DNA of 64,000 nt from Ignavibacteriota bacterium (GCA_963776275.1 CAVZMI010000020.1:96001-160000); one strand, 5' to 3'; positions 8,832 through 61,607 are shown, counted from the stretch's first letter. Translations and numbers: made by a program. Notes: generated from the sequence alone by a model not told the origin.

Positions 8832-11317
8832 ATGCAAAAGCAACGTCTGCATATTGTGATTCGCGGTGCGGTTCAGGGAGTCGGCTTCCGTCCGTTTATC
8901 TATCGCCTTGCCACCGACATGCGCCTCGCCGGATGGGTGATCAATTCTACTCAGGGTGTTCTCATCGAGGTTGAAGGCGAAAGACCTGATCTCGATGAGT
9001 TCATTCTGCGTTTAACGCATGAAAAACCTCCTCGTGCTTTTATCCAGAGTCTGGAGCCGTCACTGCTTGATCCTGTCGGTTTTACATCGTTTGAAATCCG
9101 GGAGAGCGATGACCGGGGTACCCCGAGCGCACTCGTTATGCCCGATATAGCAACATGTCCGGACTGCCTTCGGGAAATATTTGATCCGACAAATCGCCGG
9201 TATCGTTATCCTTTTACAAACTGTACAAATTGCGGACCCAGATTCACAATCATTGAATCACTTCCCTACGACCGGCCTTCAACGACAATGAAGCAATTTA
9301 TCATGTGCGACATGTGCCGGAAGGAATATGAAGACCCGCTAGACCGGCGCTTTCATGCACAGCCGAATGCCTGTCCGGAATGCGGCCCCCACCTCGAACT
9401 CTGGAATATTCAGGGAAATATTACAGCAACGCATTTTGAAGCTTTAAAAACTGCAGCAGAGATGATCCGGTCTGGAAATATTGTTGCCGTCAAAGGACTC
9501 GGAGGATTTCATCTCATTGTCGATGCACGGAACGATGATGCTGTTCTAAACCTTCGCGCCCGTAAACATCATGAAGAAAAACCGTTTGCGGTTATGGTCC
9601 CTTCGCTCGACACCGTAAAAAAGCTCTGTGAGGTCTCGGCACTCGAAGAACGACTTCTCATATCGCCGGAATCTCCAATTGTTCTATTGCAAAAAAGAGA
9701 TGACTATCAAGACTTTCAACTTTCAACTTTCAACCCGAAACTATCGAACGCCGTTTCCCCCGGCAATCCTTATCTCGGCATCATGCTCCCGTATACTCCA
9801 CTCCATCATTTACTCATGAAAGAACTCGGGTTCCCGGTCGTCGCGACCAGCGGAAATCTTTCAGACGAACCTATTTGTATCGATGAACATGAAGCCCTGT
9901 CGCGTCTCCAGCATATAGCCGATGCATTTCTTATACACAACCGGTCCATACTGCGTCATGTCGACGATTCCATTGTACGTATAATGGCAGGCCGGGAGCT
10001 CGTTCTACGACGAGCACGGGGGTTTGCTCCGCTCCCAATTCCAATGCGCGTGTCTGAAATTCCTTCGATGCTTGCAGTCGGCGCCCATTTGAAAAACACC
10101 GTCGCGATCACGGCGGGCAGTAATACATTTATCAGTCAGCACATAGGCGATCTCGAAACACACGAAGCATTGACGGCATTTAAGAATGTGATCGCGAGTC
10201 TGCAGACGCTCTATTCGTTTACACCGACGACAGTAGTGTGTGATGAGCATCCTGATTATCTCTCGACAAAACATGCCCGCAGTATGGGAATCGAGATTCT
10301 TCCGGTTCAGCATCATTATGCCCACATCGCTTCATGCATGGCGGAAAACGAACTGAATGGCAAGGTTCTAGGAGTTTCATGGGACGGAACGGGCTATGGC
10401 CTTGACGGGACAATCTGGGGTGGAGAATTTTTATTAATAGATGAGAACGGATTCAATCGCGTCGCAACGTTTCGTCCTTTCCCTCTTCCGGGAGGCGATC
10501 AGGCAATTCGTGAACCGCGAAGAATCGCCCTTGGAATGTTGTATGCAAAAGCAGGAGACGAAGCATTCAAACAGAACGATCTTGCCTGTATAAAAGCATT
10601 CACACAATCTGAGCTTTCGGTCATTCAGACAATGCTTCAAAAGAAAATCAATTCTCCTTTGACGTCGAGTATCGGACGGCTTTTCGACGGTGTTGCCTCG
10701 ATAATCGGACTTCGACAGCGGACGAATTACGAGGGCGAAACAGCCATGGAACTAGAATTTGCTACGATCCGGCAAGTTACCGATGAATCATATTCTTATA
10801 CTATAGTGGAAGGAAAAACCGATAACCTTCAACCTTCAACTCTCGCCCTGAGCGATCCCGAGCGAGTCCCGCGGTCCGTCCCGAGCGAACCCTGAGCTTG
10901 CTTGCCGCGAGCTCGGTCGAGCGGTCGAAGGGTGTCGAGGGAAGCGGGACGAGTCGAGGGGAAGTCGAAGGGTTATACCTTAAACATCTTTTTTATATAG
11001 ATTGGTTTCCCATGATTGGAGGAATAGTATCTGACCATACTCATGGAATTGCGGTCGGTCATATTTCAACAAAATTCCATAATACATTGACTGAGATTAT
11101 TATTTCCGTTGTAAAAAAAATTCAACAACAACGCGTGGCACTCAGCGGCGGATGTTTTCAAAACAAATATCTTACCGAGAGAACAATCCGGCGTCTTCAG
11201 GAAGAAGGCTTCAAGCCATACTGGCACCAACGTGTGCCGCCGAATGATGGGGGCATTTCGCTCGGACAAATTGCCGCAGCACTTCGACTGAAAAAAGGAA
11301 TTGATAAACTGCATTAA
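8832..11317 (+). CDS. hypF: Carbamoyltransferase HypF, split by a one-base frame break inside a nested palindromic insertion
   Basis: VQGVGFRP acylphosphatase domain, zinc fingers, KGLGGFHL, QHHYAH, DGTGYG; C-terminal ALSGGCFQN and PNDGGISLGQ lie in a different frame (10898-11317). Confidence 0.92.
9712..9742 (+). repeat. Heptamer tandem tract (ACTTTCA)3 inside hypF, in frame
   Basis: actttca actttca actttca acccgaa act, encoding DFQLSTFNPKL. Confidence 0.7.
10842..10972 (+). repeat. Six-layer nested palindromic (REP-like) insertion in hypF
   Basis: Concentric arm pairs such as CCCTGAGCGA/AGTCGAAGGG, TCCCGC/GCGGGA and CCCTGAGCTTG/TCGAAGGG around CCGCGAGCTCGGTCGAGCGG. Confidence 0.85.
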
Positions 11318-11426
11318 ACACCATTACTCGACTTGATGTCGAGTGTGGTGATTAAATTTTTATTGATAATTGTATCACTGGTAAAAATCTCGTACACTAA
11401 TATTATTATTCCTATAGGGAGTTTGT

Positions 11427-11687
11427 ATGTGTCTGGCAATACCGGGGAAGGTTTTAGAAATATACCGCTCAGGCGATCTGTTAATGGGCAAGGTGAGTTT
11501 TGGAGGGATTCAGAAAGAGGTGTGCCTTGATTGGGAGCCGGAGGTGAAGGTTGGTGAATATGTGATTGTCCATGTCGGTTTTGCCATAAGTACAATGGAT
11601 GAAGAAGAAGCCCGGGAGACGCTGAAGATGCTGGAACAGATGGAGAGGGGATCGGACGAACTGAAAGATCTTGATCCGAACGCGTGA
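11427..11687 (+). CDS. hypC: Hydrogenase assembly chaperone HypC/HupF
   Basis: MCLAIPG start, YVIVHVGFAI. Confidence 0.96.
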   Translation: MCLAIPGKVLEIYRSGDLLMGKVSFGGIQKEVCLDWEPEVKVGEYVIVHVGFAISTMDEEEARETLKMLEQMERGSDELKDLDPNA

Positions 11688-11724
11688 CTCACACCCTTTT
11701 TCCCTCGATCAGGAGAATTCAACA

Positions 11725-12465
11725 ATGAAAATATTTTCGACAATTCTTTTTTTTATTATCTTTTACTCCCCTCTCTTTCCACAATCAGCCGAGGAAATTA
11801 TCAGGAAATCAGAAAATCTCATAAAGGGAAACTCATGCCAGGGAACGTTTATCATGACCGTCGTAACTCCCGATTACAGCCGCCGCATGGAAATGGAAAG
11901 CTGGTGGGTGGGAAATGATAAGGCGCTCATTGTGATCAAGTCTCCGAAAAAAGAAGCAGGCAATAAAACGCTGAAGATTAAAAACGAAATGTGGAGCTAT
12001 TTGAAGAATACGGAAACAACAATAAAATTACCCCCGTCGATGATGCTGCAATCGTGGAATGGATCCGACTTCACAAACGATGACCTTGTTCGCGAATCAA
12101 ACCTGAACGAAGATTACGTACAAAAAATTATAGGGCAGGATGATGTGCAGGGAGAGCGGTGCTGGAAGATCGAGCTCCTTCCGAGACCTACTGCACCTGT
12201 AGTTTGGGGACGGCTGTTATACTGGGTAAGACAGGCAGATTATCTCCCTGCAACCGTCGAGTATTACGATGAAAAAGGAAAGTTGATGCGTTCAATGGTG
12301 TATTCGGATTTCAAGATAATGGGCGGCCGGAAACTTCCGAGTCGATGGGAAATGGTGAATAAGGTAAAGCCGGGACATTCGACGACATTCGAGCTCGTCG
12401 ATGTGACATTTGATATACCGATCAGCAATAAGATTTTTTCATTTCGTGAATTGGAACGGAGATAG
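11725..12465 (+). CDS. Outer-membrane lipoprotein-sorting (LolA-like) periplasmic protein
   Basis: Signal peptide, SMMLQSWNGSDFTNDD motif; precedes FtsX-like permeases; AGGAG RBS. Confidence 0.8.
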   Translation: MKIFSTILFFIIFYSPLFPQSAEEIIRKSENLIKGNSCQGTFIMTVVTPDYSRRMEMESWWVGNDKALIVIKSPKKEAGNKTLKIKNEMWSYLKNTETTIKLPPSMMLQSWNGSDFTNDDLVRESNLNEDYVQKIIGQDDVQGERCWKIELLPRPTAPVVWGRLLYWVRQADYLPATVEYYDEKGKLMRSMVYSDFKIMGGRKLPSRWEMVNKVKPGHSTTFELVDVTFDIPISNKIFSFRELERR

Positions 12466-12491
12466 TATTTTTGGTAATATATTGACTTCAA

Positions 12492-12745
12492 CTCTGTGAC
12501 CTTTGCGGATTCTCTTGCGCCGGAGGCACGCCTACGGCAAAGCCTTCGGCGTCCGTAGGCGCATGCGCCTTTGGCGCAGTGTCCTCCGCGGCAGTGCTCC
12601 TAATATTAATTTCGATTCAGAGAAGGGAGCACAGCACTACAAAAAGGCTGTTCGCAACTGGGGTATTATATTTAATCATGGTAAAAATATAACCACAGAA
12701 TACACGGAGTACTCTTCAATGGCTTTATAGGCGGAGGACACAGAG
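12492..12745. repeat. Long inverted-repeat structure whose left arm is split by a 63-bp nested hairpin (12516-12578)
   Basis: ctct|insert|gtgtcctccgc is complementary to gcggaggacacagag (12731-12745). Confidence 0.75.
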
Positions 12746-12775
12746 ATTTAAAAATCATTTTCAGTCCATACAGAT

Positions 12776-14002
12776 ATGAAACTTCTTCTAAAACTTGGCT
12801 GGCGAAATATCTGGCGAAACAAGCGGCGCTCGCTTCTGACGATTCTGGCCGTTGTCTTTGCCGTGTTTCTCACCATTGTCATGCGTGGGGCACAGGTCGG
12901 AACATGGGAAGAGAACATCAAGGCCATGGCGAAAATGTTTTCGGGATATGTCCAGATCCAGCGGGAAGGATATCAGAAGAATCCATCTCTTCAGCTCTGT
13001 GTTGTTCAAACGGATTCACTTCGAACCCTCATCGCGGGGAATCCGGCAATTGCCGCTGCGACACCCCGTATTTACGGAGAGGGACTTGCCAGTTATAAGG
13101 AACATTCGCTTGGCGTCATGATCCTCGGCATCTCGCCGGCAACCGAGCAGCGCGTATCAACCTTTCAGTCGCGGCTCAACCGGGGAACATTCTTTTCCTC
13201 AGATACCGGTACTGCGATTGTTGTCGGATATAAACTCCTGCAGAATCTCAATGCTGCAATAGGTGATACTATCGTTGTGCTTGCACAGGGAATCGACGGA
13301 TCGCTCGGAAACATGAAATATACGATCACCGGCACTGTGAAAACCGGAGCTCCGGAATTCGACGCCATGGGAATTTTCATGGGACTCGCCGCAGCACAGG
13401 ACCTTCTCGGTATGCAGAACCGGGTCCACGCGATCGTACTTACTCTCAACAATCTTGACGATATTCCCGGCGTCCAGCATTACCTGACACAATCGCTCGA
13501 TCCGCATCTTACCGCCATGACGTGGGAAGATGTTAATCCGGACCTGAAACAGCATATGGAGGTGGATACAACCAGCGCCATTTTGTATGCCGGCATCCTC
13601 ATGGTTATTGTCGCATTCGGCATTTTGAACACCGTGCTAATGTCCGTCACGGAGCGTTTCCGCGAATTCGGTGTTTCACTTTCCATGGGAATGCCGAATT
13701 CGACTCTTGTGAAATTGATTTTTCTCGAGACGGCTTTCATGGCAGTCGTCGGTATCATCATCGGGAATATCATCGCAGCAATCATCAATTATACGATCAT
13801 CACTCATCCGATTATTATCGGAGGTAATCTGGGTGATCTCTATCAGCAATACGGGTTTATGCCGAAGATCGTCTCAAGTCTTAAATTTCACCTTTTTCGA
13901 AATGCGTCTATATCAATTTTTATTATTTCACTTATTTCGTGCATTTATCCTGCATATCGTGTGGCAAAATTAGAACCGTTAAAGGGTTTACATCACGTAT
14001 AA
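12776..14002 (+). CDS. ABC transporter permease (FtsX/LolE/MacB-like)
   Basis: WRNIWRNKRRS start, GILNTVLMSVTERFREFG, C-terminal YPAYRVAKLEP. Confidence 0.9.
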   Translation: MKLLLKLGWRNIWRNKRRSLLTILAVVFAVFLTIVMRGAQVGTWEENIKAMAKMFSGYVQIQREGYQKNPSLQLCVVQTDSLRTLIAGNPAIAAATPRIYGEGLASYKEHSLGVMILGISPATEQRVSTFQSRLNRGTFFSSDTGTAIVVGYKLLQNLNAAIGDTIVVLAQGIDGSLGNMKYTITGTVKTGAPEFDAMGIFMGLAAAQDLLGMQNRVHAIVLTLNNLDDIPGVQHYLTQSLDPHLTAMTWEDVNPDLKQHMEVDTTSAILYAGILMVIVAFGILNTVLMSVTERFREFGVSLSMGMPNSTLVKLIFLETAFMAVVGIIIGNIIAAIINYTIITHPIIIGGNLGDLYQQYGFMPKIVSSLKFHLFRNASISIFIISLISCIYPAYRVAKLEPLKGLHHV

Positions 14003-14007
14003 CGACT

Positions 14008-15222
14008 ATGCTCTTCAAACTTTCATGGCGGAATATATGGCGCAATAAACGCCGGTCATTGATCGTGATGACTGCAATCGCGATCGGAATCACGGCGCTT
14101 GTCCTGACCGATGCAATTTATAACGGACTCCTCATCGAGATGCTCGATAATCAGATCCGGTCGCACATTGCGCATATCGAAATCCACTCCAGGGGATTCA
14201 ACGATAACAAGATAATTGAAAATTCCATGAAGGAATATGAGAACGTAGAAAAGGTTCTCAGCACCAACCCGAACATTGCATGTTTCAGCAGACGAGTCAT
14301 CACGTACGGTATAATCAGCAGTGCCTCCAACTCTTCGGGAATAACCATCGTCGGAGTTGATCCGGCCAGGGAAGCAAATATTACAAAAATCAAAGCGTCT
14401 ATTATTGCCGGACATTATCTCGACTCAACTAAAAACGAAATCATTATCAGTAAAAAACTGGCTGAAAAACTCTCGGTTGAACTTGAGGACAAGATTGTCC
14501 TTATGGCTTCAGACGCTGATGGACGCGTGAGCTCCGATGCTTTCCGTGTCATCGGAATATTCGAGACTTCAGGAGCTGATTTCGATCGTGCATATATTTT
14601 TATTACTCTTCACCATGCCCAAAAGATGCTGGGATTAAACAATGCCATTTCGGAAATTGCGGTCATCACAAAGAACACCGACCAGCTTGCACAGACACAA
14701 TCCACAATTGTCTCATCGATTGGTGAATCATATGAAGTGCTTACATACTTTGATCTGATTCCGAATATCATCATGGTCGTCGAAGTGGGCAGACAGGCAA
14801 TGGTCATCTATTATCTAATCATCGGTATAGCCATACTTTTTGGTATCATCAACACCATGCTGATGTCCGTATTCGAGCGTACACGCGAGCTCGGAATTCT
14901 GATGGCGACCGGAATGAAAAATGTGCGCATTTTCAACATGATAATCGTTGAAGCCCTTTTTCTGAGTGCGATCGGAACCGTGGTCGGAATCGTCATAGGC
15001 TTGCTCATTTATGCACCTCTTGTTTCGAATGGCATTAACCTTTCGGCTGTAGGTGAAGGACTCACACTTGTTGGAGCGAGTCCCATCATCCATCCGATCC
15101 TGACGGTACAGGGAATGATAAATGCGATCACCATTATTCCTCTGATCTCGATGATCGCGGCAATTTATCCGGCATTCAAAGCGACGAGATTAGAGCCCGT
15201 ACGTGCAATTCAATATATTTGA
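14008..15222 (+). CDS. ABC transporter permease (FtsX/LolE/MacB-like), paralog of the upstream gene
   Basis: WRNIWRNKRRS, GIINTMLMSVFERTRELG. Confidence 0.9.
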   Translation: MLFKLSWRNIWRNKRRSLIVMTAIAIGITALVLTDAIYNGLLIEMLDNQIRSHIAHIEIHSRGFNDNKIIENSMKEYENVEKVLSTNPNIACFSRRVITYGIISSASNSSGITIVGVDPAREANITKIKASIIAGHYLDSTKNEIIISKKLAEKLSVELEDKIVLMASDADGRVSSDAFRVIGIFETSGADFDRAYIFITLHHAQKMLGLNNAISEIAVITKNTDQLAQTQSTIVSSIGESYEVLTYFDLIPNIIMVVEVGRQAMVIYYLIIGIAILFGIINTMLMSVFERTRELGILMATGMKNVRIFNMIIVEALFLSAIGTVVGIVIGLLIYAPLVSNGINLSAVGEGLTLVGASPIIHPILTVQGMINAITIIPLISMIAAIYPAFKATRLEPVRAIQYI

Positions 15223-15240
15223 TCTGACTTGAGGTATTCC

Positions 15241-15924
15241 ATGGAAATAATTCACACCGAACACATCGAAAAAATATATGACGACGACGGGGTCCCCGTC
15301 CACGCACTCCACAACGTCACATTTTCAATACAAAAAGGCGAATTTCTTGCCATCGCCGGTCCTTCCGGTTCGGGTAAGACAACGCTCCTGAACATTATCG
15401 GTGCACTGGACAAGCCGACAAATGGAGAGGTCATTCTTGACGGCGACAAACTGACTGATAAACAGAAAGGGACTCTCTCAACACTTCGTCTCAATAAGAT
15501 CGGATTTGTATTCCAGGCGTACAATCTTATTCCCGTTCTTTCCGCTATGGAAAATATTGAATTTAAAATGATGCTGTTAAATATCCCTGAGCAGGTTCGA
15601 AGAGAACAATCAATGAAGATCATGGAGGAGCTCGGGATAGCCGAACTGGCCCACAAACGCCCCAATGAGATGAGCGGCGGACAGCAGCAGCGGGTTGCTG
15701 TCGCCCGGGCAATCGTGAATAATCCGCCGATTGTTCTGGCCGATGAACCTACGGCAAACCTCGATTCCGTAACGGCATTTTCACTGATTGATATCATGAG
15801 AAAAATGAATGAAGAAAAAAAGATCACGTTCGTTTTTTCATCACATGATCATCAGGTATTACAGAATGCCCGTCGTGTCATCCTTTTGCGTGACGGCCGT
15901 ATCGAGCAGGATATCGCGCAATGA
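15241..15924 (+). CDS. ABC transporter ATP-binding protein (LolD-like)
   Basis: GPSGSGKT, MSGGQQQR, LADEPT. Confidence 0.93.
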   Translation: MEIIHTEHIEKIYDDDGVPVHALHNVTFSIQKGEFLAIAGPSGSGKTTLLNIIGALDKPTNGEVILDGDKLTDKQKGTLSTLRLNKIGFVFQAYNLIPVLSAMENIEFKMMLLNIPEQVRREQSMKIMEELGIAELAHKRPNEMSGGQQQRVAVARAIVNNPPIVLADEPTANLDSVTAFSLIDIMRKMNEEKKITFVFSSHDHQVLQNARRVILLRDGRIEQDIAQ

Positions 15925-15947
15925 AAATGACGCTTTGCCACGATGTT

Positions 15948-16027
15948 CGTCATTCCGTTCCGGCTTTTTACCCTGAGCCTGCCTGCCCCGAGCCTGTCGA
16001 GGGGTCGAAGGGTGTCGGGACGGGATC
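15948..16027 (+). repeat. Nested palindromic repeat (three to four layers)
   Basis: cgtcattccgttccggc..[ccctgagcctg[cctgccccgagcctgtcgagggg]tcgaaggg]tgtcgggacgggatc. Confidence 0.8.
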
Positions 16028-16117
16028 TGATAAATAGATCGGTTGTATACAATTATGTGAAATCTTATTTGTCCAAAATAAACTCAAAAAAATACATAAT
16101 CATTAGTCGGTTACTGA

Positions 16118-16308: not shown

Positions 16309-16406
16309 TCTTTCAAAAAACGAAATTATCAAATCTTATTCGTTCTAGGATTTATTTTGGACAGCACTGATGTGAAATATATTTTGAGAATGAGCAATAT
16401 CTAAAT

Positions 16407-42695: not shown

Positions 42696-42789
42696 TAGAA
42701 GGCGCAGGTTCTATGGGGGTTGTCTAAAAAGTAATTCTTACCGTAACAAAATCTCAGACAGTAAATAATATCAACATGATCTTTTTCAT

Positions 42790-42948
42790 GGTTGTCTCGA
42801 TACATCCCGTCCCGCTTAGGCGGGACGGGATTACTCGACAACCTGGCTATTTCCTTATGTGTTATATAGCCAGGTTACCGAGCGACGCACTGAGCATGTC
42901 GAAGTGTAGTCCTGCCCTGTTTTTTGAGCAGGGCGTATCGAGGTAACC
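42790..42948. repeat. Inverted doublet of REP-like units, each carrying nested hairpins
   Basis: ggttgtctcgatac[atcccgtcccgcttaggcgggacgggat]tactcgacaacc and ggttaccgagcg..[cactgagcatgtcgaagtg]..[gccctg..cagggc]gtatcgaggtaacc. Confidence 0.78.
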
Positions 42949-43097
42949 TATGTCGAAAGCATCTGAATAATTGGTAGAAATATTTTCTTTTTGGACAGCC
43001 CCTATGATGAACTAAACTCCAATTGACTTAAGTCACCCATATTCAGAATAAATCGGGTAAATATTGGGTTAAAACCCATACAATATCCTTCATTTAA

Positions 43098-43155
43098 TAG
43101 CCACGAACTGACCCCACTGGAAAGCGTGGGGCGTAAAAGCACGAGTTCGTGGCTA
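43098..43155. repeat. 12-bp-stem palindrome with nested inner hairpin
   Basis: tagccacgaact..[ccccac..gtgggg]..agttcgtggcta. Confidence 0.7.
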
Positions 43156-45891: not shown

Positions 45892-45949
45892 TCGAAATCC
45901 CGGGGGTGGAGAGATTAATCTTGAATTGCTTTTACTAATTAAAAAGTAA

Positions 45950-46010
45950 CCCTTCGGCTCTCCGCCTACGCTCCACCAGTGCGGAGCTTCGGCGGATCGC
46001 TCAGGGCAAG
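45950..46010 (-). repeat. 61-bp nested palindromic insertion splitting a 19-bp inverted-repeat arm
   Basis: Minus strand cttgccctgagcga[tccgccgaagctccgcactggtggagcgtaggcgga]gagccgaaggg; its removal gives aagtaaaaaggaaaaatta, the complement of 46073-46091. Confidence 0.82.
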
Positions 46011-46109
46011 AAAGGAAAAATTATAAAAGATTAGACGATTTAAAATTGATTGTTATACCACTTTATAATTTTTAATTTTTCCTTTTTACTTAACAACCGC
46101 CTTTGAATA

Positions 46110-49094: not shown

Positions 49095-50339
49095 TCAACT
49101 TACATCGAGTCCAATCAGAATTTCAATATCGTCTGTACCTGGAAACATATCGAGAGGAACGGCCTTAGAAGGATAATAGCCCGATTTTTTCCACCGGGAA
49201 AGCTCCTGAGGGATGCGATCGACATCGCAAAAAATATGTACTACCCTTTCCGGCCGGCGTGCGGCGATCGTCTCTATAACTCCCTCCGATGTACCGCCGC
49301 GGGGCGGATCGAGAATAACCGAAAACTGCTGCGGAGCTTTTTGTAAGAGCACCTCCATCGATTCCTGCGTAATATCACGGCGCAAAAATCGGACGTGCTG
49401 CTCGTGCTGCCGGATGGCGTTAGATTTTGCCGCTTCAACCGAAGCACCCGTTATTTCAACTCCGGTCGCCGATGCGACTTTCCCGGCGAAGGAAAGCGCG
49501 AAAAGTCCGTAACCGCAATACAAATCATAAAGATGCATCTCACGGTGAGGCGAGATCAGAGTCTCAACGCGCCTGACCATCTCTTCGACCATCGATTGAT
49601 TGATCTGGGAGAACGATAAGGGCGAATACAGAAAGCTTTTCCCGAGGATCTTCTGATATATTTCTTTCTTCCCGTACACGCGCCGGAACGAATGCTCCTC
49701 TCCTTCGCCGGACGAAAGATAATACCGCGATCGCTTCTCATCGTGATAGAGAAAAATACCTGTAACCTCTTTCACTGCCGCCGTCAGGGCTTTCGACAAT
49801 GCATTAATTTTTTTCAGAACGGCGGGTTCGATCGCTTTGACATTCAGAATAACCGTCAGCTCGGCATAGCTCCCTTTGATGATGACATAATTCAATGCAT
49901 CTGCAAGACGCCGCTCTTTTGCCGTATCGAGAAATTTCTGCACACACGCATACACTCGCGCGTGCGCCTCCGGTTCGATCATACATTGCACGACATCGAT
50001 GGCGCCTGCATGCCCGCCGCCTCTTTGTGAAATGCCGATTAGGCCGAGCCGCGCTTTCCCACGGGATGGAAATACCCTTCGTTTCGTGACAGTACGATAG
50101 AATCGCCCGAGTGACGAAGGAATAATGGAATCGATCGAGATGGGTAGTTTATTCCTTCTCCAGAATTTTTTCAGTACGTCGTTTTTTATACGGAGTTCAT
50201 CGTCATAATTTAGCATCACCGCATGACAGAGCGAACATCGTTTTCCGTAAGGAGTCTGGCATTCACCGTCACGAAGCGCTCGTTGAGGGATGTGCGCTGC
50301 TTGGATGGCTCGCGTGTAACATTCTTCAAAATGGATCAT
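49095..50339 (-). CDS. RlmD/TrmA-like RNA m5U methyltransferase
   Basis: FSQIN, DLYCGYG, LDPPRGG, DMFPGT. Confidence 0.85.
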   Translation of the reverse strand: MIHFEECYTRAIQAAHIPQRALRDGECQTPYGKRCSLCHAVMLNYDDELRIKNDVLKKFWRRNKLPISIDSIIPSSLGRFYRTVTKRRVFPSRGKARLGLIGISQRGGGHAGAIDVVQCMIEPEAHARVYACVQKFLDTAKERRLADALNYVIIKGSYAELTVILNVKAIEPAVLKKINALSKALTAAVKEVTGIFLYHDEKRSRYYLSSGEGEEHSFRRVYGKKEIYQKILGKSFLYSPLSFSQINQSMVEEMVRRVETLISPHREMHLYDLYCGYGLFALSFAGKVASATGVEITGASVEAAKSNAIRQHEQHVRFLRRDITQESMEVLLQKAPQQFSVILDPPRGGTSEGVIETIAARRPERVVHIFCDVDRIPQELSRWKKSGYYPSKAVPLDMFPGTDDIEILIGLDVS

Positions 50340-53786: not shown

Positions 53787-53908
53787 TCTACCCTTGATTT
53801 TGACACCGGATTTTCTCATTTTAGCTTGTCGATCATTCTACTGCAGTAACATTCTGCAGGAATCAACCGTCGGTTTAATACAGATTTCTTAAGTTTTTAG
53901 GATCCATA

Positions 53909-54928
53909 ATGAAATATTCCGCCCTGATACTCGTCGTGCTGGCGTGCAGCACTGCAAATGCCGGTGAAACGAAAGTGGCAAAATATGCAGGAGAATTTCT
54001 CTCGATCGGTGTCGGCGGCCGGGCTCTTGGAATGGGGAGCGCCGCTGTCGCAATCGCCGGCGACGTGACCGCAGGATATTGGAATCCTGCGGGTCTCAGC
54101 GACATCAAGTATCCGGAAGTCATTTTCATGCATGACGAAGGTTTCGGAAGTCTTATCAGTTACGACTATGGTGCCGCTGCAATCCCTTACGGCCCTTCTT
54201 CGAGTTTCGGATTAAGCGTGATGCGGCTTGGCGTCGACGGCATTCCCGACACGAGGAACGCACTGATCGATGTTAACGGTAATAACAGATTCGATGGTGC
54301 TGATCGAATCGATTATTCCCGTGTGACATATTTTACAACCGCTGATTGGGTTTTTTATGCATCATATGCTAAAAAAGTCTCATCTGAATTTTCATACGGC
54401 GCGAACCTCAAATTCATCCGCCGTTCGCTCGCAGACGCTTCGGCAACCGGTATCGGATTTGATGTTGCCGTTCAGTACATCCCATTCGAGAATGTCCGCC
54501 TGGGAGCAAATGTTCAGGATGTGACAACGACACTGGTTGCATGGAGCACGGGTTTAAACGAATTGATCTCCCCGACAGTTAAGGTCGGAGGAGCATATCT
54601 CATGGAATTATTTGGCGGACAACTTACACCGGAAGTTGATTTTGACCTCCGCTTTGAAAATCGGCGGACAGCATCGACAGCATACGTCGGCCCGGTGAGT
54701 ATCGATGTCCGTGGTGGTATGGAGTATGCCTATAAAAATGTCATTGCCGTACGTATCGGGTATACAGATATAAAACAGTTGACTCTGGGTGCAGGATTAC
54801 GGTTACCGAAATTGGATATCGATTATTCATTTGCAAAATTCGACGGAACCGGTCAGCTCGGGAATACTCATCGAATTTCACTAAAGCTGACAATCGACAG
54901 TGAAAAATACGCTCGGCCGACAGAATGA
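53909..54928 (+). CDS. PorV/PorQ-family outer-membrane protein
   Basis: FLSIGVGGRALGMG, YWNPAGL, THRISL. Confidence 0.85.
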   Translation: MKYSALILVVLACSTANAGETKVAKYAGEFLSIGVGGRALGMGSAAVAIAGDVTAGYWNPAGLSDIKYPEVIFMHDEGFGSLISYDYGAAAIPYGPSSSFGLSVMRLGVDGIPDTRNALIDVNGNNRFDGADRIDYSRVTYFTTADWVFYASYAKKVSSEFSYGANLKFIRRSLADASATGIGFDVAVQYIPFENVRLGANVQDVTTTLVAWSTGLNELISPTVKVGGAYLMELFGGQLTPEVDFDLRFENRRTASTAYVGPVSIDVRGGMEYAYKNVIAVRIGYTDIKQLTLGAGLRLPKLDIDYSFAKFDGTGQLGNTHRISLKLTIDSEKYARPTE

Positions 54929-55863
54929 AGTCTTTTATCAATTTTTTATCAATCCACTCGCACTGCAATTCGTCGTTCCCGCAGGTAAACGAGAAGCAAA
55001 AATCTGAGATCCGACGGAAAGTTGAAAAATACTTACTCGGCGTAATATCTTCCGATGATTGTAAAGCGAAATTCTTTTTCCTTTTTTTTTACTTTTTAGT
55101 TTTTACCCCTCTGCTCACCCGACCCATAGAACGGGTCGGATTCGCTCGGGGCAAGCTTTTTTCCCCATCGGCTCGTTCAACCCGGTACCCTTCGATCACT
55201 CGACCCCTCGATAAACTCGGGGCAGGCAAGGTCTCGACAGGCTCGACCCAAGGCTCGCGGCAAGCAAGCTCAGGGCAAGTCATCGGGATTCACTCGGTCA
55301 AGATGTACTTTTTCCTTTTTACTTTTTACTTTTTCCTTTTGTTTTCCGGATGCGCCTCTCTAAAATACCCTTCCTCATATCCGATGACCCGTGAAATTGT
55401 TCGATCACTTCAAGGCGGAATTACGGTTCAAGTTCCTCAGGGATGGTTTAATTCCACCGATGCAAATGTCTCTCCCGGATTGTTACTATGGTTGGTAAAA
55501 AAAGATTATACAGCGGCGATAACATTAACGGAGCTTCACATTGACGAAATCGGAAGCAAACAGGTCATAATTGATGGTCTTGAAACACTAGCCTCAATCA
55601 GCTTTTCATTGAAGAAAGAACGGGTTCAAGAGGGAATACAATTAATCGGGACGTATGAAATATTTACACTGGGTGGAAAAAAATATTGCGCGTATGAATA
55701 TTCGACCGATCAGGGAAAGACTATAGAAAGGGTGATTGTGTTTGGAGGTGTCGGAAAATGGTTCGAACTATCGGCTGTTCCATTCCAAAAAAGAGGTCGT
55801 TTTATCGATCATGAAAGCCTATTCTCCGTCCAAAATTCTCTTCTTAATTCACTTCGTTTTTAA
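54925..55863 (+). CDS. Putative lipoprotein with a repeat-expanded N-terminus (alternative start 55303)
   Basis: Lipobox LFSGC; ATGA overlap with the upstream gene; frame stays open through the nested repeats. Confidence 0.6.
   Translation: MKSFINFLSIHSHCNSSFPQVNEKQKSEIRRKVEKYLLGVISSDDCKAKFFFLFFYFLVFTPLLTRPIERVGFARGKLFSPSARSTRYPSITRPLDKLGAGKVSTGSTQGSRQASSGQVIGIHSVKMYFFLFTFYFFLLFSGCASLKYPSSYPMTREIVRSLQGGITVQVPQGWFNSTDANVSPGLLLWLVKKDYTAAITLTELHIDEIGSKQVIIDGLETLASISFSLKKERVQEGIQLIGTYEIFTLGGKKYCAYEYSTDQGKTIERVIVFGGVGKWFELSAVPFQKRGRFIDHESLFSVQNSLLNSLRF
55106..55302 (-). repeat. Two nested palindromic insertions in a T-rich heptamer tract
   Basis: cccttcga...caagctcagggcaag (55188-55279) encloses cccctcgataaactcgggg, ggtctcgacaggctcgacc and gctcgcggcaag; a second nest lies at 55106-55155. 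Confidence 0.8.
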
Positions 55864-56030
55864 GCTGGTAAAGATAGGCTGTTTCTTTTCCCCATCTGGC
55901 TAATATTCGGCACATTTCCTTATCCTAATCCCATAAAATAAATGAAAAAGGCCGGTTCTCAATTTGGCATAGTTTTGGTGTTTTTCACTAAAGTATAATT
56001 ATAGAATTATCACTATTGGGAGATGTCATA

Positions 56031-56273
56031 ATGGCTGTGAAGCAGAATTTTAAGGAATGTAGCGGCTGTGGGAAAGTATGGCGTACAGCAGATACTTTCT
56101 TAAACGACAAATCACTGAAACTCAATGGATATCAGTGGAATTTGCTGCAGGAAAAATCAGGATTATTAGTCTATACGCATGAACGTAGTTACTGTGGAAG
56201 CACGATAAGCGTGAAAGCTCAGAGTTTCTCACATCACTCAGAAAAAGAACTAACCGACGAACGAAAGAATTGA
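56031..56273 (+). CDS. Small Cys/His-containing hypothetical protein
   Basis: CSGC..W, H...CGST; GGAG RBS. Confidence 0.65.
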   Translation: MAVKQNFKECSGCGKVWRTADTFLNDKSLKLNGYQWNLLQEKSGLLVYTHERSYCGSTISVKAQSFSHHSEKELTDERKN

Positions 56274-56332
56274 CGAAACTTCCGTCAGGTGGGATATCCT
56301 TGTGGAGGGGAAACCACGTGATGTCTTCATAG

Positions 56333-56369
56333 AAGCCCGGGTTTGTTTTAAGCAAATCGGGGCTTTTTT
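56333..56369 (+). terminator. Intrinsic terminator
   Basis: aagcccgggtttg / caaatcggggctt followed by a T-run. Confidence 0.6.
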
Positions 56370-56691
56370 ATTTGTTATTAAAAATCCTTAGCAATTCAGT
56401 AAATTTTCTAAGAATGACTTGCGTTCAACCGGGACATGTAGAGATGAAGTTAAATTATTGAGAGGAAAGTAGTTAATTCTTTTAGGGGACGACTACTTAA
56501 TGAGAATTTTTCCATTGGATTTTTATAAGGACTATATGAATATACTTCCCACAAATAACAGGCGGCGCGCATATTCCATTTTTTATGTACGGGAGGCACA
56601 CGCCTCATGGAATATACACACCGCCGTATCATGCCTCCAATTTGATATATCCCCCTGATATCAATCGGAGAACAGTGAGATGGCACAGGTT

Positions 56692-56868
56692 TTATTCAGT
56701 CACCGGATAGACATGAATGAAGCTTTCTCCCATCGGAAAAAGCATCGGCTCGAAATTCACATTTGAATTCCTGGCTGCTGAAGTGAGTTCCACGTCGACA
56801 TAATGATCGACTTGCTCCCCAGATGAACTGTAGACTTCAACAATAATTTCTTTTATGGCCTTTTTCAT
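56692..56868 (-). CDS. Unlisted 58-aa small ORF (MKKAIKEIIVEVYSSSGEQVDH...)
   Basis: Hand-translated; GGAGG 10 nt upstream of the ATG; below the ORF-track length cutoff. Confidence 0.45.
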   Translation of the reverse strand: MKKAIKEIIVEVYSSSGEQVDHYVDVELTSAARNSNVNFEPMLFPMGESFIHVYPVTE

Positions 56869-57283
56869 TTTAATCTGCCTCCCTTCGAAGCTCTTGGTTT
56901 TACATTTACTCCATTGGGAACATATGCTATGCCAAATATAAAAATGACCAAAATGAGGAGAATTTGAGGTTTCCTTATAAGAGTGCGAATTCGGGAATAG
57001 AAAATTCTACAATATTCTTTGAAATAAATAAAAACCCTAATAAAATCAGCTTTTTTTGGCATGGAATATGGTGTATGACTTTGGAAAGGTTCAGTTCAAG
57101 AAAAAATGAAGATTTTCTTCATAAATGCTATTTAACACTTGCGTTTTACAATTTTGGCATATATCTTTGTATGTACAAAAAGGGAGCAAAAGAGACCATA
57201 TTTGTGCAGAGTGTAAAAGTCGTATAATTACGCCAGAACTCAGTGTAATTCACAATACTTTCACTCTTCGAGGAGGAGTATCT

Positions 57284-57571
57284 ATGGGTAAAGCAATGTC
57301 TAAATCACAGGTTGCAGATCACTTTGCAAAAAAGTTTGAACTTAAGAAAAAAGTTGTTGCAGCATTATTTGCAGAACTTGCAAATCTAGCGTATAAAGAA
57401 GCAAGAAATTCATTCACGATTCCTGGCATCGGTAAACTGGTATTAGTCGACCGGAAAGCACGCATCGGAAGAAATCCGGCAACTGGTGAACAGATTCAGA
57501 TCCCAGCGAAGACTGTAGTGAAATTCCGGGTAGCAAAAGCTTGTAAAGACGCTGTGTTGGCGCAGAAATAA
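57284..57571 (+). CDS. hup: HU-family DNA-binding protein
   Basis: IPGIGKL..RKARIGRNPATGE.I.IPAK; GGAGG RBS. Confidence 0.92.
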   Translation: MGKAMSKSQVADHFAKKFELKKKVVAALFAELANLAYKEARNSFTIPGIGKLVLVDRKARIGRNPATGEQIQIPAKTVVKFRVAKACKDAVLAQK

Positions 57572-57613
57572 ACTACTGCAATTTTTAAAGATTTTTGGTG
57601 GGATATAAACAAC

Positions 57614-57650
57614 AATAGTCCCGTTGTTTTAGCGGGACTATTTCATTTTT
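57614..57650 (+). terminator. Intrinsic terminator after the HU gene
   Basis: aatagtcccg / cgggactatt hairpin followed by a T-rich tail. Confidence 0.7.
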
Positions 57651-57736
57651 TGTCGGGGCGACAGGATTCCCGCTCCGCCCCGCTCTTATGCCGCATTATC
57701 GGCGGAGCGGGGCGAGCGAACCTGCGACTTCTCGGT
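57646..57736 (-). repeat. Duplicated 3' half of tRNA-Pro with a 48-bp hairpin inserted in the T-loop
   Basis: 57646-57669 = 58082-58105 and 57718-57732 = 58106-58120; insert 57670-57717. Confidence 0.9.
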
Positions 57737-57979
57737 ATCTAAGATATTCTTTATTTTCTGTCGACCTGCACTACTTTTATAATATTTTTCACGTTTCAAA
57801 GCATCATCTCTGCTCATGAACTCCTCACTCCAAATCATTTCCCACGGTACATAAGCTTTCGTCGACTTAACTTTGCCACCGTTATGTTCTCCAATTCGCT
57901 TTTGAATGTTTTCAGTCTGGCCAACATATGTCCTTAGATGAGAAGACGAAAATAGTATATAAAGTGTGAAAACTGACAT
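57686..57979 (-). CDS. Small stand-alone GIY-YIG nuclease
   Basis: LYIL...YVGQT....R..EHN, AL.REK..K; C-terminus runs into the tRNA copy. Confidence 0.9.
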   Translation of the reverse strand: MSVFTLYILFSSSHLRTYVGQTENIQKRIGEHNGGKVKSTKAYVPWEMIWSEEFMSRDDALKREKYYKSSAGRQKIKNILDTEKSQVRSPRSADNAA

Positions 57980-58088
57980 AATAGTCTTTTAGGGGCTTTA
58001 TGGGACGATGATTTTCTAATGGCGGAAGTGAATAATTTCCTTAAAAATTAGACTGTGAGGAGATGTACTTCCATGAGAAGTTTTTTTG

Positions 58089-58163
58089 TCGGGGCGACAG
58101 GATTCGAACCTGCGACTTCTTGGTCCCAAACCAAGCGCTCTAGCCGGGCTGAGCTACGCCCCG
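58089..58163 (-). tRNA. tRNA-Pro(TGG)
   Basis: Cloverleaf CGGGGCG...CTTGG-TTTGGGA-CCAAG...GGTTCGAATCC...CGCCCCGA; CCA not encoded. Confidence 0.96.
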
Positions 58164-58563
58164 AAAAAACCTTGAGATTAAGATAACCGATTAAATGTCG
58201 AAAATCAATTTAGAAATGGAAAACTGGGTGATTATACGATTTGCAGCAAAGATTGAATGTCATTTTCAACCTCTGAAGAACTCAACTCCAACATTCACAA
58301 TAACTTGGCCTGCCTATAATTTTGTCATATTTCCATGACCCTTCGCTCATATATCGGTGATATTTTTCCGATAAAAAAATAATATAAAACGTTGTTCGGA
58401 CCGAATTCGTGATGCCGCCCGGGCTTTAGATCGAAGTAGAAGCAACTAAGGAGCCTCGATGTATGGATTAAAATGATGGAACCGGATTTCTTTTGCCTAG
58501 TCGTTCTTTAACGGGGACTTCGGCCCGGATAGTTTGCCAGATGATATTCTAAATAGTACAGGT

Positions 58564-59742
58564 TTATTGGTTATAAGTAAATTCATAAAGATGTCCAATA
58601 AATTGCAGCACATAGATTCTATTAGTACCATCGCCTCGTCCAGGTCCAACAGTCAAACCGTTTAATGATGTACTTCCATCCGTTGTCATTTGAGAGGATT
58701 TTATCCAAGAGTCATTGACGAAAGTATACTCAGCTAATCTGTCGAAATGTGCAGACCAATAGAGTCGATTTATTCCATCGTTACGCCCTATTCCACCACA
58801 TATTTGATTGATGCCTGGTTCGCTCCCAACCATGACTTTTGTCCATTGATCGTTAGTAAAATAAAATTCATAAAGGTTACCGCCATCGCCTGCAAAAACA
58901 GCTGGCCGGCCATTGTGAGTATTGGTAATTTCCACAACACTCCATGCCACAACATTTTCAGGGAGAGATATTAATTGACCTAAAGATGATTTTTTCCATG
59001 AGCCATTTTCAAAACTTATTTCGGATATTTCTGTAGTAAAATATGAAATATAAATACGATCCTTACCATCTCCACGACCATTACCGACACATATATCTGA
59101 TAAGTTATTATATTCTGTAACGACAAGAGTTTTTACCCAAATTCCGCTCCGAAAGCTAATTTCATATATTCCTCCAGCTCCAGATATATATAATGATTCA
59201 AATCCATCATTCTTTGGGTCTCCGATAACCAGGTAACCTCCACCAAGAGAATAGATATCTTGAATAGTCCATTGATTATTGGCAAAATCAAACTCACATA
59301 CTTTATTTGACGATACTCCATATAAGCGAAGTATTCCATCATTTTTACACCTTCCTATTGCAATCGAATTAAATCCTGAAATACCTTTATCTATCCTTGT
59401 TTTCGTCCAACTGTTATTACTATAACTAAACTCTTGAATGCCAATGCTTCCAAAAGGGTTACCAGCTAAAATATAGAGTCTTGAGATACCATCTCCTCTG
59501 AGACCAGCAATGATGATTTGACCACTCACACGATCCGTTGAAATTTGTCCAATGTCAACAGCGTTCCAATTTTTATCCTTTTCCAGTTCTATTTCCGGTT
59601 CTATCGATTGAGTTTTTGAACAAGAAATCAAAGCAAAGGCGAGTAACAACACGCAAAACCTAAATAGTTTTTCAATAGGAATTTTTCTCGTTGTATCATA
59701 CTGTTTCGATGTATGATTTGTGGATTGAGTAAATTGGATCAT
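58564..59742 (-). CDS. Putative lipoprotein with FG-GAP-like beta-propeller repeats
   Basis: Lipobox LISC; about seven repeats of G-x-G-R-[GN]-D-G-x-x-R-[IL]-Y...E-F/Y...W; AT-rich. Confidence 0.75.
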   Translation of the reverse strand: MIQFTQSTNHTSKQYDTTRKIPIEKLFRFCVLLLAFALISCSKTQSIEPEIELEKDKNWNAVDIGQISTDRVSGQIIIAGLRGDGISRLYILAGNPFGSIGIQEFSYSNNSWTKTRIDKGISGFNSIAIGRCKNDGILRLYGVSSNKVCEFDFANNQWTIQDIYSLGGGYLVIGDPKNDGFESLYISGAGGIYEISFRSGIWVKTLVVTEYNNLSDICVGNGRGDGKDRIYISYFTTEISEISFENGSWKKSSLGQLISLPENVVAWSVVEITNTHNGRPAVFAGDGGNLYEFYFTNDQWTKVMVGSEPGINQICGGIGRNDGINRLYWSAHFDRLAEYTFVNDSWIKSSQMTTDGSTSLNGLTVGPGRGDGTNRIYVLQFIGHLYEFTYNQ

Positions 59743-60212
59743 GATCGTTTATCCTCTTATGGTTGAATGCTTTTAGTTTCAAGATACACAACCACTAAAG
59801 GAAAGTTGTCACAACATTGTCAAAAGAATGTCATAAAATATTGGAGGGTTGCAATATCGTTCGTATAACTAAGTCATAAGCAATTCGTGTGTTCTAACAA
59901 TAATTAGACTGATCCGCATAAGATACTTATTTTAGGTTTTGTGTCCGTATAACAAGCCATGGGATTTCTTGCCGAAGGCGTGTTAAATCCTTGGCATTCC
60001 ATCGATCGTAACTGACGGCGACGCCACGATATATTTTTAAATCCAGCCTCTTAAGTCGGATGTTTTCGGAGGAACAATTGAATGTTACATAATCTTAGGC
60101 TAATAATCAAACGGCAGCCCTATTCGGAGCTGCCGCAGAGTGGGACTCGTGATAAGACTCATTTATTTTTTTGCCCAAATGTTTTGATTTGGTCTGAAGA
60201 CATACAGCCCGT

Positions 60213-61477
60213 TCATCTTAGTAAAACAAGTTTTTTCGTTTCAGTGTAATTCCCTGATTTAAGTCGATAGAAATAGACTCCACTCGGCAAATTAGCAGCA
60301 TTGAAGTTTACCTGATACACTCCGGCCGACTTTTGTTCGCTAACAAGTACATCCACTACCTGTCCAAGCACATTATAGACTTTAAGCGTGACGGACGATG
60401 CCTGCGGTAGTTCATAGCGAATGGTTGTACTCGGATTGAACGGGTTGGGATAGCACTGCATCAGATCAAATTTTTCGGGCAAAGATTCGCTTTTTGAAAT
60501 ACGGGTCGGTGCGATTTCACCTTGAAACAAAAAAGGAGGAGTGAAATAAAATATCGCATTTGAAAGATGAACGCATCCGGTTTTAAGATGAACGCCGTTC
60601 GTCGTTGACCCTGTAAAATGAAAACGATCTGCCGCTGAATAAACATCCACGGCGCCGACCGAAAAAACAGTCCTTCCCGTCATATTGAATACCATATCGG
60701 CGGAAGACAAATTGAATAGAACTTCTGTGAAACCCGACGAACGGTAACCGTTAATTCTGATATTCTTCGTGATTGTGGGAGCATCGGTATAATTACCTGC
60801 AGCGATGTTAATCATATCGTCGTCTCCAAGACCCACAATAATGACGTGTGAAATCGATGTCACCGGCCCTTGCCCGGGTAAGCCGGCGTCGGCGATAAAC
60901 CATTATATGCATCAAGGCCGGTAACGATATCGACATACCATGTCATCGGAGGAGGCGCCGTGCCTGCAGGAATACTCGTCTGAAACAAGAAAGGAGGAGC
61001 TATATAAAATATCGCTGTTGAGAGAAGAATTTCCCCTGAGTGCAGATAAATTCCCGTATTGTCTGATCCGGTAAAATAAAAACGGTCTGCAGCTAAAAGC
61101 CCGTAGGCGCTCACATCATCCAGACTAAATGTGGTAACGCCGCTCATATTGAATACCATGCTCGCCGTGGAAACGTTGAAAATTACGTCTGATAATCCGG
61201 TTATTTTATAGCCGTTGACGGTAATATTTTTGGAAATTGTCGGGGAGTCGGAATACGTCCCCGCGGCAATGTTTATGATGTCGCCGTCATTGAGTGCACC
61301 GGTGGCTATGACCTCCGAGATGGTACTTTTGGGGCCATTACCGGGAGGCGAATTTATCGGTGATAAACCGTTGTTCGCGCCCAAGCCACTCGTGATATCG
61401 ACGTACCAGGTTGTTTGAGAAGATAGGGTGCCTGTAAGTCCGATAAGAATAAAAAGTATCATTAATAGCTTTTTCAT
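60213..61477 (-). CDS. Secreted two-repeat protein with T9SS-type C-terminal sorting domain, frameshifted near 60865
   Basis: Two TWYVDI..G....NGLSP repeats; the second continues in another frame; YPNPFNPSTTIRY...SGVYFY...KKLVLLR C-terminus. Confidence 0.8.
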
Positions 61478-61560
61478 TTTTCAACTCCTTCCGGGTTTAA
61501 TGAAAATTCTACAATATATGAATGTATACACTTATGTGTATAGATGTATCGTTTCAGAGC

Positions 61561-61607
61561 CTTGTGTCGAGCTTGTGGTGAGCTTGTCGAACCATCAATT
61601 GAGACAC
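61561..61607 (+). repeat. Two-layer nested palindrome
   Basis: cttgtgtcgagcttg[tggtgagcttgtcgaacca]tcaattgagacac. Confidence 0.7.

Follow-up and report, generated by a model that had tools for sequence, protein, structure and literature searches.

Self-nesting 23-nucleotide hairpin units in an Ignavibacteriota genome and their probable GIY-YIG nuclease partner

The Ssn family (cd10448) comprises single-domain GIY-YIG proteins. Their binding site is a tagged hairpin repeat termed NTS/SRM, of which dRS3 is one form, and they cleave single-stranded DNA (ssDNA) upstream of the repeat (Chenal et al. 2025, PMC11893778). The repeat is present in 71% of Ssn homologue regions and on both sides in 42%; an insertion sequence-like layout, NTS-ssnA-NTS, was pointed out as a hypothesis only and domestication was suggested, cleavage and an effect on transformation being what that paper demonstrates (PMC11893778). 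Here we describe short tagged hairpin repeats with a GAGC/TCGA core (units) that lie inserted into one another, forming nests, in the genome of an Ignavibacteriota bacterium (GCA_963776275.1). The 64,000-nucleotide (nt) stretch analysed, referred to as the window (G000:C20:96001-160000), belongs to a draft genome of 3.70 Mb in 38 contigs with ~45% G+C. Named-record relatives of the window proteins carry labels of Bacteroidota or Ignavibacteria metagenome-assembled genomes. Contigs are given below by C numbers and other genomes by G numbers.

As in the Ssn systems (PMC11893778), the gene of a ~100-aa single-domain GIY-YIG protein is flanked on both sides by short hairpin repeats, a 5' tag orients the repeats, and many copies are spread across the genome and across many phyla. 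The units differ from the SRM, which has a 7-8-bp stem and a small loop, in combining a variable 4-bp stem with a conserved 11-nt GAGC-YTG-TCGA top, and in the CYTG tag of this genus. The words 'nested', 'Bacteroid' and 'tRNA' are absent from the main text of PMC11893778, as judged by a word search, and its supplementary tables may list a GAGC/TCGA motif type. The new elements relative to Ssn-repeat systems are self-nesting and mobility at the level of the unit.

REP/REPIN elements with RAYT transposases (PMC3116915, PMC3333891, PMC2817692) share several properties with the units: short palindromes with a 5' tetranucleotide tag that occur singly, as inverted doublets or in clusters, a gene present in single copy between its own repeats, persistence by vertical descent over long times and no target duplication. 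In contrast, the tags here are CTTG, CCTG, CTCG and TTTA, not GTAG, the mobile unit is apparently a 23-nt singlet rather than a doublet, the units nest, and their partner does not appear to be a Y1 transposase (see below). CGTC-tagged REPs, dRS3 and RPE are likewise tagged hairpins, mostly arranged as head-to-head dimers, and occur in Proteobacteria, Bacteroidetes, Chlorobi and others; REPs inside larger palindromes are recorded in A. variabilis, T. roseum and H. neapolitanus (Di Nocera et al. 2013, PMC3733652). They differ in their 8-9-bp stems, 4-5-nt loops and CCA tail, and the parts of PMC3733652 compared here describe neither multilayer self-nesting nor a GIY-YIG link. IS200/IS605 elements (PMC6006769) insert strand-specifically beside a tetranucleotide, without target duplication, and recognise ssDNA hairpins, as the units may also do. 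However, no TnpA lies inside the element described here, which is a single 23-nt hairpin, and its gene association does not indicate HUH chemistry. Miniature inverted-repeat transposable elements of the DDE type, which combine terminal inverted repeats with a target-site duplication, differ in that no target duplication is seen at filled/empty pairs here and the orientation of nested units is biased. A literature search on nested REPs or self-inserting palindromes in bacteria gave no matching report, although the GAGC/TCGA repeat may still have a name, and searches with the core as a DNA word and with short peptide words returned only unrelated primer matches.

Unit grammar, nests and exact presence or absence

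A strict unit pattern, stem4-GAGC-N1-5-TCGA-rc(stem4), was run over the whole genome. It matched 75 times, compared with 1-10 matches for nine scrambled or swapped core pairs. A typical unit begins with a CYTG tag and a 4-nt stem arm, which lead into GAGC; a spacer of 2-4 nt (mostly TTG) separates GAGC from TCGA, and the complementary arm closes the unit, 23 nt in all with the tag. The word GAGC[CT]TGTCGA occurs 60 times in the genome, flanked in 47 cases by perfectly complementary 4-nt arms (loops TTG 41, CTG 6), and the 75 strict units have 20 distinct stems. Pairing has therefore been maintained although the stem sequence varies, and the conserved part of the unit is the 11-nt top plus four base pairs. 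A CYYG tag proposed in a preliminary description of the window was borne out: CTTG (26), CCTG (11) and CTCG (9) together precede 46/75 units, followed by TTTA (7).

That description had also called the repeats GC-rich hairpins. Folded as DNA, a 24-nt unit reached only -3.3 kcal/mol, and whole nests compared with shuffles gave z values of -1.2 to +0.45; the label was thus overstated. No protein coding was found within the 19-24-nt units. A hammerhead-like reading of a CUGA...GAA arrangement was considered by eye and dropped, the core being without the G8, A9 and stem II that a hammerhead requires.

Nested hairpins were present as described at all the loci named beforehand. In the commonest parent-child layout the inner tag follows directly after the outer GAGC-YTG and the inner end abuts the outer TCGA; this spacing, written (7,0), accounts for 23/87 same-strand pairs, with (4,3) and (3,4) as variants. 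Reuse of the entry point after GAGCYTG, suggested by a few window loci, thus holds genome-wide: the corresponding junction word GAGCYTGCYTGNNNNGAGY has 19 copies, 6 or 7 of them inside one tandem array. A longer 23-nt junction noted at 10890-10912 and, reversed, at 55253-55275 is found nowhere else in the genome. Units can also enter 5' of the loop triplet (GAGC^YTG, or GAG^C, one base being ambiguous), as GGTC-stem units and one inverted insert do. At 55175-55278 the loop is occupied at both edges, by a GGTC unit before the triplet and a CCCC unit after it. Leaving out tandem arrays, inner and outer units had the same orientation in 32 cases and opposite orientation in 5. Preferred entry probably occurs at either edge of the CYTG word within the apical motif, GAG^C / GAGC^YTG and YTG^TCGA. 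Such entry points lie inside the tops of existing units, so repeated hits would build nests. The distance from GAGC to GTCGA between arms of the same stem forms a ladder of 2, 25, 48, 71, 94 and 117 nt, which is partly due to tandem arrays at C4:18621, C28:91229, C21:6957 and C6:162232.

Short AT-rich tandem repeats are likely to be the other common landing ground. Nests stand in such repeats at 10820-10841, 55060-55105, 55300-55340 and 45940-45950 of the window, the types around them being ACCTTCA heptamers and TACTTTTT-like octamers.

We scanned the whole genome for filled sites by excising 8-200 nt and requiring the restored 24-mer (12+12 exact flanks) elsewhere. The scan yielded 505 sites; a CRISPR array and tandem repeats were also picked up and set aside. 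Exact 23-24-nt filled/empty cases lie on several contigs (Table 1), and window positions 10901-10924 are a 24-nt filled site whose joined word occurs elsewhere 9-12 times. Microhomology at the 23-24-nt events was 0-1 nt, so the target is not duplicated, and no target-site duplication was seen at any exact filled/empty pair. Outside nests, the targets of these events were AT-rich repeats without a CYTG word (C8:34318). Hairpin-bearing inserts lay between the arms of a perfect stem of at least 5 bp in 30/85 cases after collapsing duplicates, the events not being independent, compared with 1809/20000 random positions and 492/5000 GC-rich positions. The loop preference is real but not exclusive.

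Removal of the insert had been proposed to restore, without target duplication, an intact sequence at three window loci, and this was confirmed. Excision of the 33 nt at 12524-12556 gives a word present at 5 other places (12+12 exact flanks), excision of the 61 nt at 45950-46010 an AT-rich word present 8 times (9+9 flanks), and excision of the 48 nt at 57669-57716 restores the 3' part of tRNA-Pro, which has one intact copy (58088-58163). Microhomology at the three was 0-4 nt, with no regular duplication. Excision of 15982-16004 likewise gives a word present once elsewhere (9+9 flanks). The 9+9 scan is expected to give ~0.6 chance hits per region, and the single-copy cases (15981, 42802, 57669) are weak alone.

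Orthologous alleles came from G001, a genome of the same genus that is syntenic with C20 over ~225 kb at ~95% identity, and from three sequencing runs of which contigs only were used: X1 (0.29 of words) carries a G001-like relative, X2 and X3 contributed small shares, and none of the runs contained the strain of the window at depth. In place of the 136-nt nest at 10841-10976 G001 has 5 nt, and the ACCTTCA heptamer array that spans this site is uninterrupted at the empty site. Also missing from G001 are the segments 45937-46083 and 55088-55155 (68 nt) and the 397 nt of 42697-43093, which hold two frames (a 44-nt hairpin type introduced below) and are missing from an X1 contig as well. The 147-154-nt segment around 45950-46010 is missing in both G001 and X1 and has a 7-nt direct repeat at its ends. 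The nest at 12516 is identical in G001, base for base.

At 55175-55278 the two genomes have the CCCT layer, the CCGC layer and the GGTC unit in common. The 23-nt CCCC unit at 55204-55226 is present only in this genome, and a G001-private 23-nt unit sits in the loop of the GGTC unit of the orthologue. When one private unit per genome is removed the alignment is gapless, with 6 mismatches in the first 82 columns. In the insert at 43098, G001 and an X1 contig each carry 31-32 extra bases after 43137. The intergenic surroundings of 15966-16016 could not be aligned with G001. Empty and partly filled alleles in a relative, named beforehand as a test, were thus found, and the orthologous alleles together with the filled/empty paralogues uphold the proposal of micro-elements that enter hairpin tops, including their own, and leave layered records.

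A further difference concerns another hairpin family. At 50010-50018, a site under the listed open reading frames (ORFs) 49095-50339 (minus) and 49692-50030 (plus), G001 has a 138-nt nest of the CCTGCCCGCC type and this genome 9 nt.

Distribution of the repeat and its gene partners

The core 13-mer TGAGCTTGTCGAA was found in 86/151 sampled genomes of the order, compared with 0-2 matches per genome for a reversed-pattern control. Copy numbers were 39 in this genome, 37 in G084, 23 in G108, 19 in G092, 16 in G019 and 13 in G001. In other genera the core takes the form of inverted doublets inside ~110-nt elements. Inverted doublets were also present in at least 120 stretches of a species collection spanning many phyla, with records from Alpha-, Beta- and Gammaproteobacteria, Bacteroidota, Chloroflexota, Nitrospirota, Verrucomicrobiota, Actinomycetota, candidate phyla and others. 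Tags elsewhere include GTCA (56/158), which falls within the HGTCW published for Ssn repeats (PMC11893778), and TTCG (81/186). The junction word GAGCYTGCYTGNNNNGAGY is much rarer than the core: of the 151 genomes, this one has 19 copies, G001 has two and 14 others have one or two each. Self-nesting is a trait of this lineage, not of the repeat class.

The consensus of Rfam family RF02901 (AaHKsRNA41, Aggregatibacter small RNA (sRNA) 41) contains the core twice, in inverted orientation. It is filed as a gammaproteobacterial sRNA, unlike the repeat class described here. Doublets of four genomes of the order (G084, G019, G072 and G048) scored at best 53.6 bits against it, none reaching the gathering score of 97. 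The consensus suggests that RF02901 may represent a member of this repeat class and not an sRNA in its own right. Within the window, tRNA was the sole Rfam match at gathering score.

The preliminary description had left the catalyst open and listed small GIY-YIG genes among the candidates for a co-occurrence check. PF01541 (GIY-YIG) is matched 15 times in this genome, and 13 of these matches are small. Frames of 44 nt and units lie on both sides of the GIY-YIG genes C22:3672 and C26:29335; at C8:55568, units and degenerate frames are found downstream only. The best GIY-YIG genes of G084, G019 and G001 adjoin units, with G001 C4:190591 bracketed by two inverted 20-nt units. We aligned three unit-adjacent proteins (A1) and fetched 80 relatives from many phyla. 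The three match PF01541 (P0001, 106 aa, over residues 4-75 with E 1.6e-20; P0002 and P0003 likewise), and an NCBIfam search of the clade proteins returned no family. At least one unit lay within 1.5 kb in 48/80 clade loci, compared with 0-1/80 for scrambled cores, and 22/65 full-length loci had a plus-strand unit upstream together with a minus-strand unit downstream. Within this genome the genes closest to the clade are those on C8, C22 and C26 (39-46% identity).

The same comparison for Y1 transposases gave a different result. PF01797 (Y1) has 9 matches in this genome, the classical ones flanked by other repeat types, and the only Y1 loci here with units nearby are a RAYT-like gene on C38 and a pseudogene copy of it on C2. 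Relatives of the C38-type gene had units at 0/80 loci and the 11-nt core at 1/80, and PF01797 loci of five unit-rich genomes had a unit at 1/30. The analogy to REP elements moved by RAYT enzymes, drawn in the preliminary description, therefore stands for the logic of tagged repeats and fails for the enzyme. Across the 151 genomes the presence of C38-type Y1 genes and the core counts formed no clean pattern: strong homologues accompany 0-2 core 13-mers in, for example, G057, G054, G044, G082, G063 and G015, and the unit-rich G028, G072 and G128 have no or only weak homologues. Starting from the repeats, 80 doublet loci held a GIY-YIG match in 2 and a weak Y1 match in 1; adjacency seen from this side is uninformative because genomes hold many repeats and few genes. 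Judged by the loci compared, the units probably owe their movement to a small GIY-YIG nuclease and not to a RAYT.

The RAYT-like pseudogene at C2:7205-7833 contains two TGA and one TAG stops. The GAGC/TCGA unit within its frame is nested in a 6-bp hairpin, and the same 44-nt word recurs at C2:1082.

Repeat families and side loci of the window

The window loci, pooled at first as one window-wide family, belong to several. GAGC/TCGA units make up the loci at 10842, 15966, 55106-55278 and 61561 and the outer layer of 45950. A second group is formed by 44-nt frames, AGCCAGGT-stem-GAGC-N28-TCGA-stem, at 42790-42945. A REP, GCCACGAACT/AGTTCGTGGC, lies at 43098, and empty copies of it flank the Y1 gene C28:53606; 12516 and 57669 represent remaining hairpin types. 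Nesting was seen in every hairpin group at these loci and not in GAGC/TCGA units alone. The individual features are collected in Table 1.

Table 1. Hairpin nests, units and associated genes of the window, and exact filled/empty sites on other contigs
Feature	Position	Strand	Remark
Six-layer GAGC/TCGA nest	10842..10975	+	Innermost 24-nt unit 10901-10924
Nest of another hairpin family, without GAGC/TCGA core	12516..12590	+	33-nt insert 12524-12556
CCCT unit hosting a 23-nt CCTG-CCCC unit (15982-16004) right after GAGCCTG	15966..16016	+	
AGCCAGGT-type frame with a 35-nt perfect hairpin (42802-42836) as interior	42790..42850	-	
AGCCAGGT-type frame TACC-GAGC...TCGA-GGTA with a 19-nt CACT unit (42888-42906) and a second hairpin	42876..42945	+	
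REP-like hairpin GCCACGAACT/AGTTCGTGGC with a 32-nt insert (43112-43143) in its loop	43098..43155	+	Empty form twice elsewhere
61-nt composite: CCCT-GAGC...CGA-AGGG frame > TCCGCC hairpin > further hairpin	45950..46010	-	
Composite CTTG-CCCC-GAGC-GA-[hairpin]-GAG-CAGA-GGGG	55106..55155	-	
Nest: CCCT unit > CCGC unit, with GGTC before and CCCC after the CCGC loop triplet	55175..55278	-	
23-nt unit, CCTG tag, CCCC stem	55204..55226	-	Absent from G001
48-nt hairpin splitting a partial tRNA-Pro 3' copy	57669..57716		Supplies last codons of the GIY-YIG ORF
97-aa single-domain GIY-YIG gene, tRNA-associated subtype	57686..57979	-	PF01541 E 1.0e-16
tRNA-Pro (tgg), intact	58088..58163	-	Apparent target of the GIY-YIG cassette
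TGTC unit (TCGA decayed to TTGA) hosting a TGGT unit (61576-61594) after GAGCTTG	61561..61607	+	
Complete CTCG-TCCT unit, 23 nt, within an AT-rich repeat	C8:34318		4 empty paralogues
Complete CTTG-CCCT unit, 23 nt, in the loop of an unrelated hairpin	C34:90994		Exact filled/empty pair
Further 23-24-nt filled/empty case	C18:209586		
Further 23-24-nt filled/empty case	C28:46715		Inverted orientation

Nest 10842-10975 touches two listed ORFs. That at 8832-10895 ends at the TGA of a CCCTGAGC word within the nest, and that at 10898-11317 starts at a TTG inside it. Insertion of the nest may have changed a gene end or created spurious ORFs here.

The intact tRNA-Pro(tgg) and a second, incomplete copy of the tRNA 3' part enclose the GIY-YIG gene 57686-57979. 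No GAGC/TCGA units lie beside this tRNA-associated subtype gene. An X2 contig (109 nt, with 24 ambiguous letters) joins 57645 to 58082 and lacks the 436-nt cassette, which thus looks like a tRNA-targeted mobile GIY-YIG element. Small GIY-YIG genes also adjoin tRNAs at C10:40699-41940, C21:75525 and C37:20836 (tRNA-Met, tRNA-Pro(ggg) and tRNA-Ser), and the C10 gene is present four times over with a 349-nt period, along with tRNA-like sequence. C38 carries a CRISPR array at ~14.8-17.4 kb, with repeats of ~30 nt and spacers of ~36 nt.

Readings of the nests and their meaning

We favour, with a probability of roughly 0.6, the reading that the GAGC/TCGA units are a lineage-specific form of very widespread short hairpin repeats and that the cognate protein of these repeats is an Ssn-like nuclease, small and with a single GIY-YIG domain. 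This reading builds on the unit grammar, the exact 23-24-nt presence or absence, the shared outer and private inner layers, the orientation bias and the GIY-YIG association, all demonstrated above. The autonomous-looking form would be a ~100-aa GIY-YIG gene bracketed by inverted units, and the single units and doublets elsewhere would be its non-autonomous copies. Units would insert or excise precisely and strand-specifically, without target duplication. In the mechanism we envisage, the nuclease would recognise the 4-bp stem and the GAGC-YTG-TCGA top on ssDNA, for example at replication forks, and nick the ssDNA at the CYTG tag word; the break would then be repaired by copying or ligating another unit through host replication or repair. 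GIY-YIG enzymes are hydrolytic and form no covalent intermediate, so a host joining step is needed, and this is the weakest link of the model. We know of no demonstration of how Ssn repeats, abundant as they are, multiply.

Self-targeting may have arisen since tag and loop share the word CTTG (GAG-CTTG-TCGA) in this lineage. With the tag word also serving as the loop word, every unit would offer a second cleavage site in its own top, which would account for the frequency of nests here and their rarity in G084 with its different tags. We propose tentatively, and with less than even confidence, that a 23-nt hairpin makes up a whole mobile unit, which would be one of the smallest known, and that it is moved on ssDNA by a hydrolytic GIY-YIG nuclease together with host replication or repair and with no transposase. 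The presence of CTTG in both tag and apex would lead to self-targeting, and the nests would be ordered insertion records that differ layer by layer between sister species.

A number of observations weigh against the GIY-YIG reading. G084 has no copy of the junction word GAGCYTGCYTGNNNNGAGY despite its 37 core 13-mers, so that a high copy number is not enough for nesting. Insertion into loops exceeds expectation 3.6-fold but is not absolute, and non-hairpin inserts also pass the loop test (21/81). The published SRM motif HGTCWY...RNCYNB has 6 matches in the genome, one of them in the window, compared with 15 in the reversed genome. Units or frames stand beside just 3/15 PF01541 matches here, and none of these is cleanly bracketed by CTTG-tagged 23-nt units; in the clade, 32/80 loci are without a strict unit. 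The nearest solved chains to the clade belong to UPF0213, 1zg2 (7.3e-14) and 1ywl (3.7e-11). Two units, one of them in a nest and the other degenerate, lie in the 200 nt upstream of the 211-aa RAYT-like gene C38:31286-31918, and the pseudogene copy of this gene on C2 has a unit inside. Finally, in the comparison of this genome with G001, each orthologous difference may be either a gain or a precise loss.

The nests could instead stem from local events between neighbouring repeats, namely template switching, slippage or gene conversion while palindromic DNA is replicated, with the GIY-YIG link reflecting a non-mobile role such as the restriction of incoming ssDNA proposed for Neisseria. The tandem arrays behind the distance ladder, with periods of 23, 46 and other nt, fit such a process, as do nests within short tandem repeats and the block duplication of whole composites (the 71-nt composite of 12516 recurs at 99% identity at C28:28183 and C28:28552). 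It would also account for the non-hairpin indels that pass the loop test, and it does not call on GIY-YIG enzymes, which cannot ligate. However, inner and outer stems differ and each is perfectly complementary, and the same stems stand free elsewhere; duplication would need many double compensatory changes to produce this. Exact 23-nt units also occur at non-repeat, non-homologous targets (C34:90994, C8:34318), and private 23-nt layers occupy different positions of one orthologous nest. We therefore consider this origin unlikely.

Slightly less likely still is an origin of the units as REPs mobilised by a Y1 (HUH) transposase, RAYT-like or of the IS200/IS605 kind, with cleavage 3' of a tetranucleotide and strand transfer through a covalent tyrosine intermediate. 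Such an enzyme is able to join DNA itself, and the absence of target duplication, the strand specificity and the 5' tetranucleotide tag all fit HUH chemistry. The genome has its 9 PF01797 matches, units accompany the C38 gene and its C2 copy, and other nesting hairpin families here flank classical Y1 genes, for example the REP of 43098 at gene C28:53606. Against this stand the near absence of units from C38-type and other PF01797 loci, the single weak Y1 match among the 80 doublet loci, and the mismatch across genomes between C38-type homologues and core counts.

That the nests are assembly artefacts at hairpins, or selected structures such as terminators, is very improbable: the draft is in 38 contigs, X1 contigs break at 55088/55237 and near 55306-55340, and several nests lie just 3' of ORFs, but two independent assemblies agree on the 12516 nest and on the outer layers of 55175-55278, an X1 contig has the same 31 extra bases as G001, no T-run follows the nests at 10842 and 55106-55278, and the terminator reading was set aside with nests folding no better than shuffles.

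On the favoured reading, in which a small GIY-YIG nuclease is the partner of the units, the nests provide sequence-level evidence for movement of the repeat: 23-nt steps are gained or lost exactly, there is a strand bias, the entry points are defined, and two species carry private layers on top of shared ones. The nests further link one GIY-YIG clade to a repeat that is present in many phyla and that Rfam files as an sRNA. Units read as coding sequence can yield spurious ORFs. If the nuclease is the driver, the process would be transposition-like and yet work without a transposase, the hairpins and their enzymes would be natural pairs for ssDNA tools, and the nests would serve as a lineage marker in which the order of layers records history.

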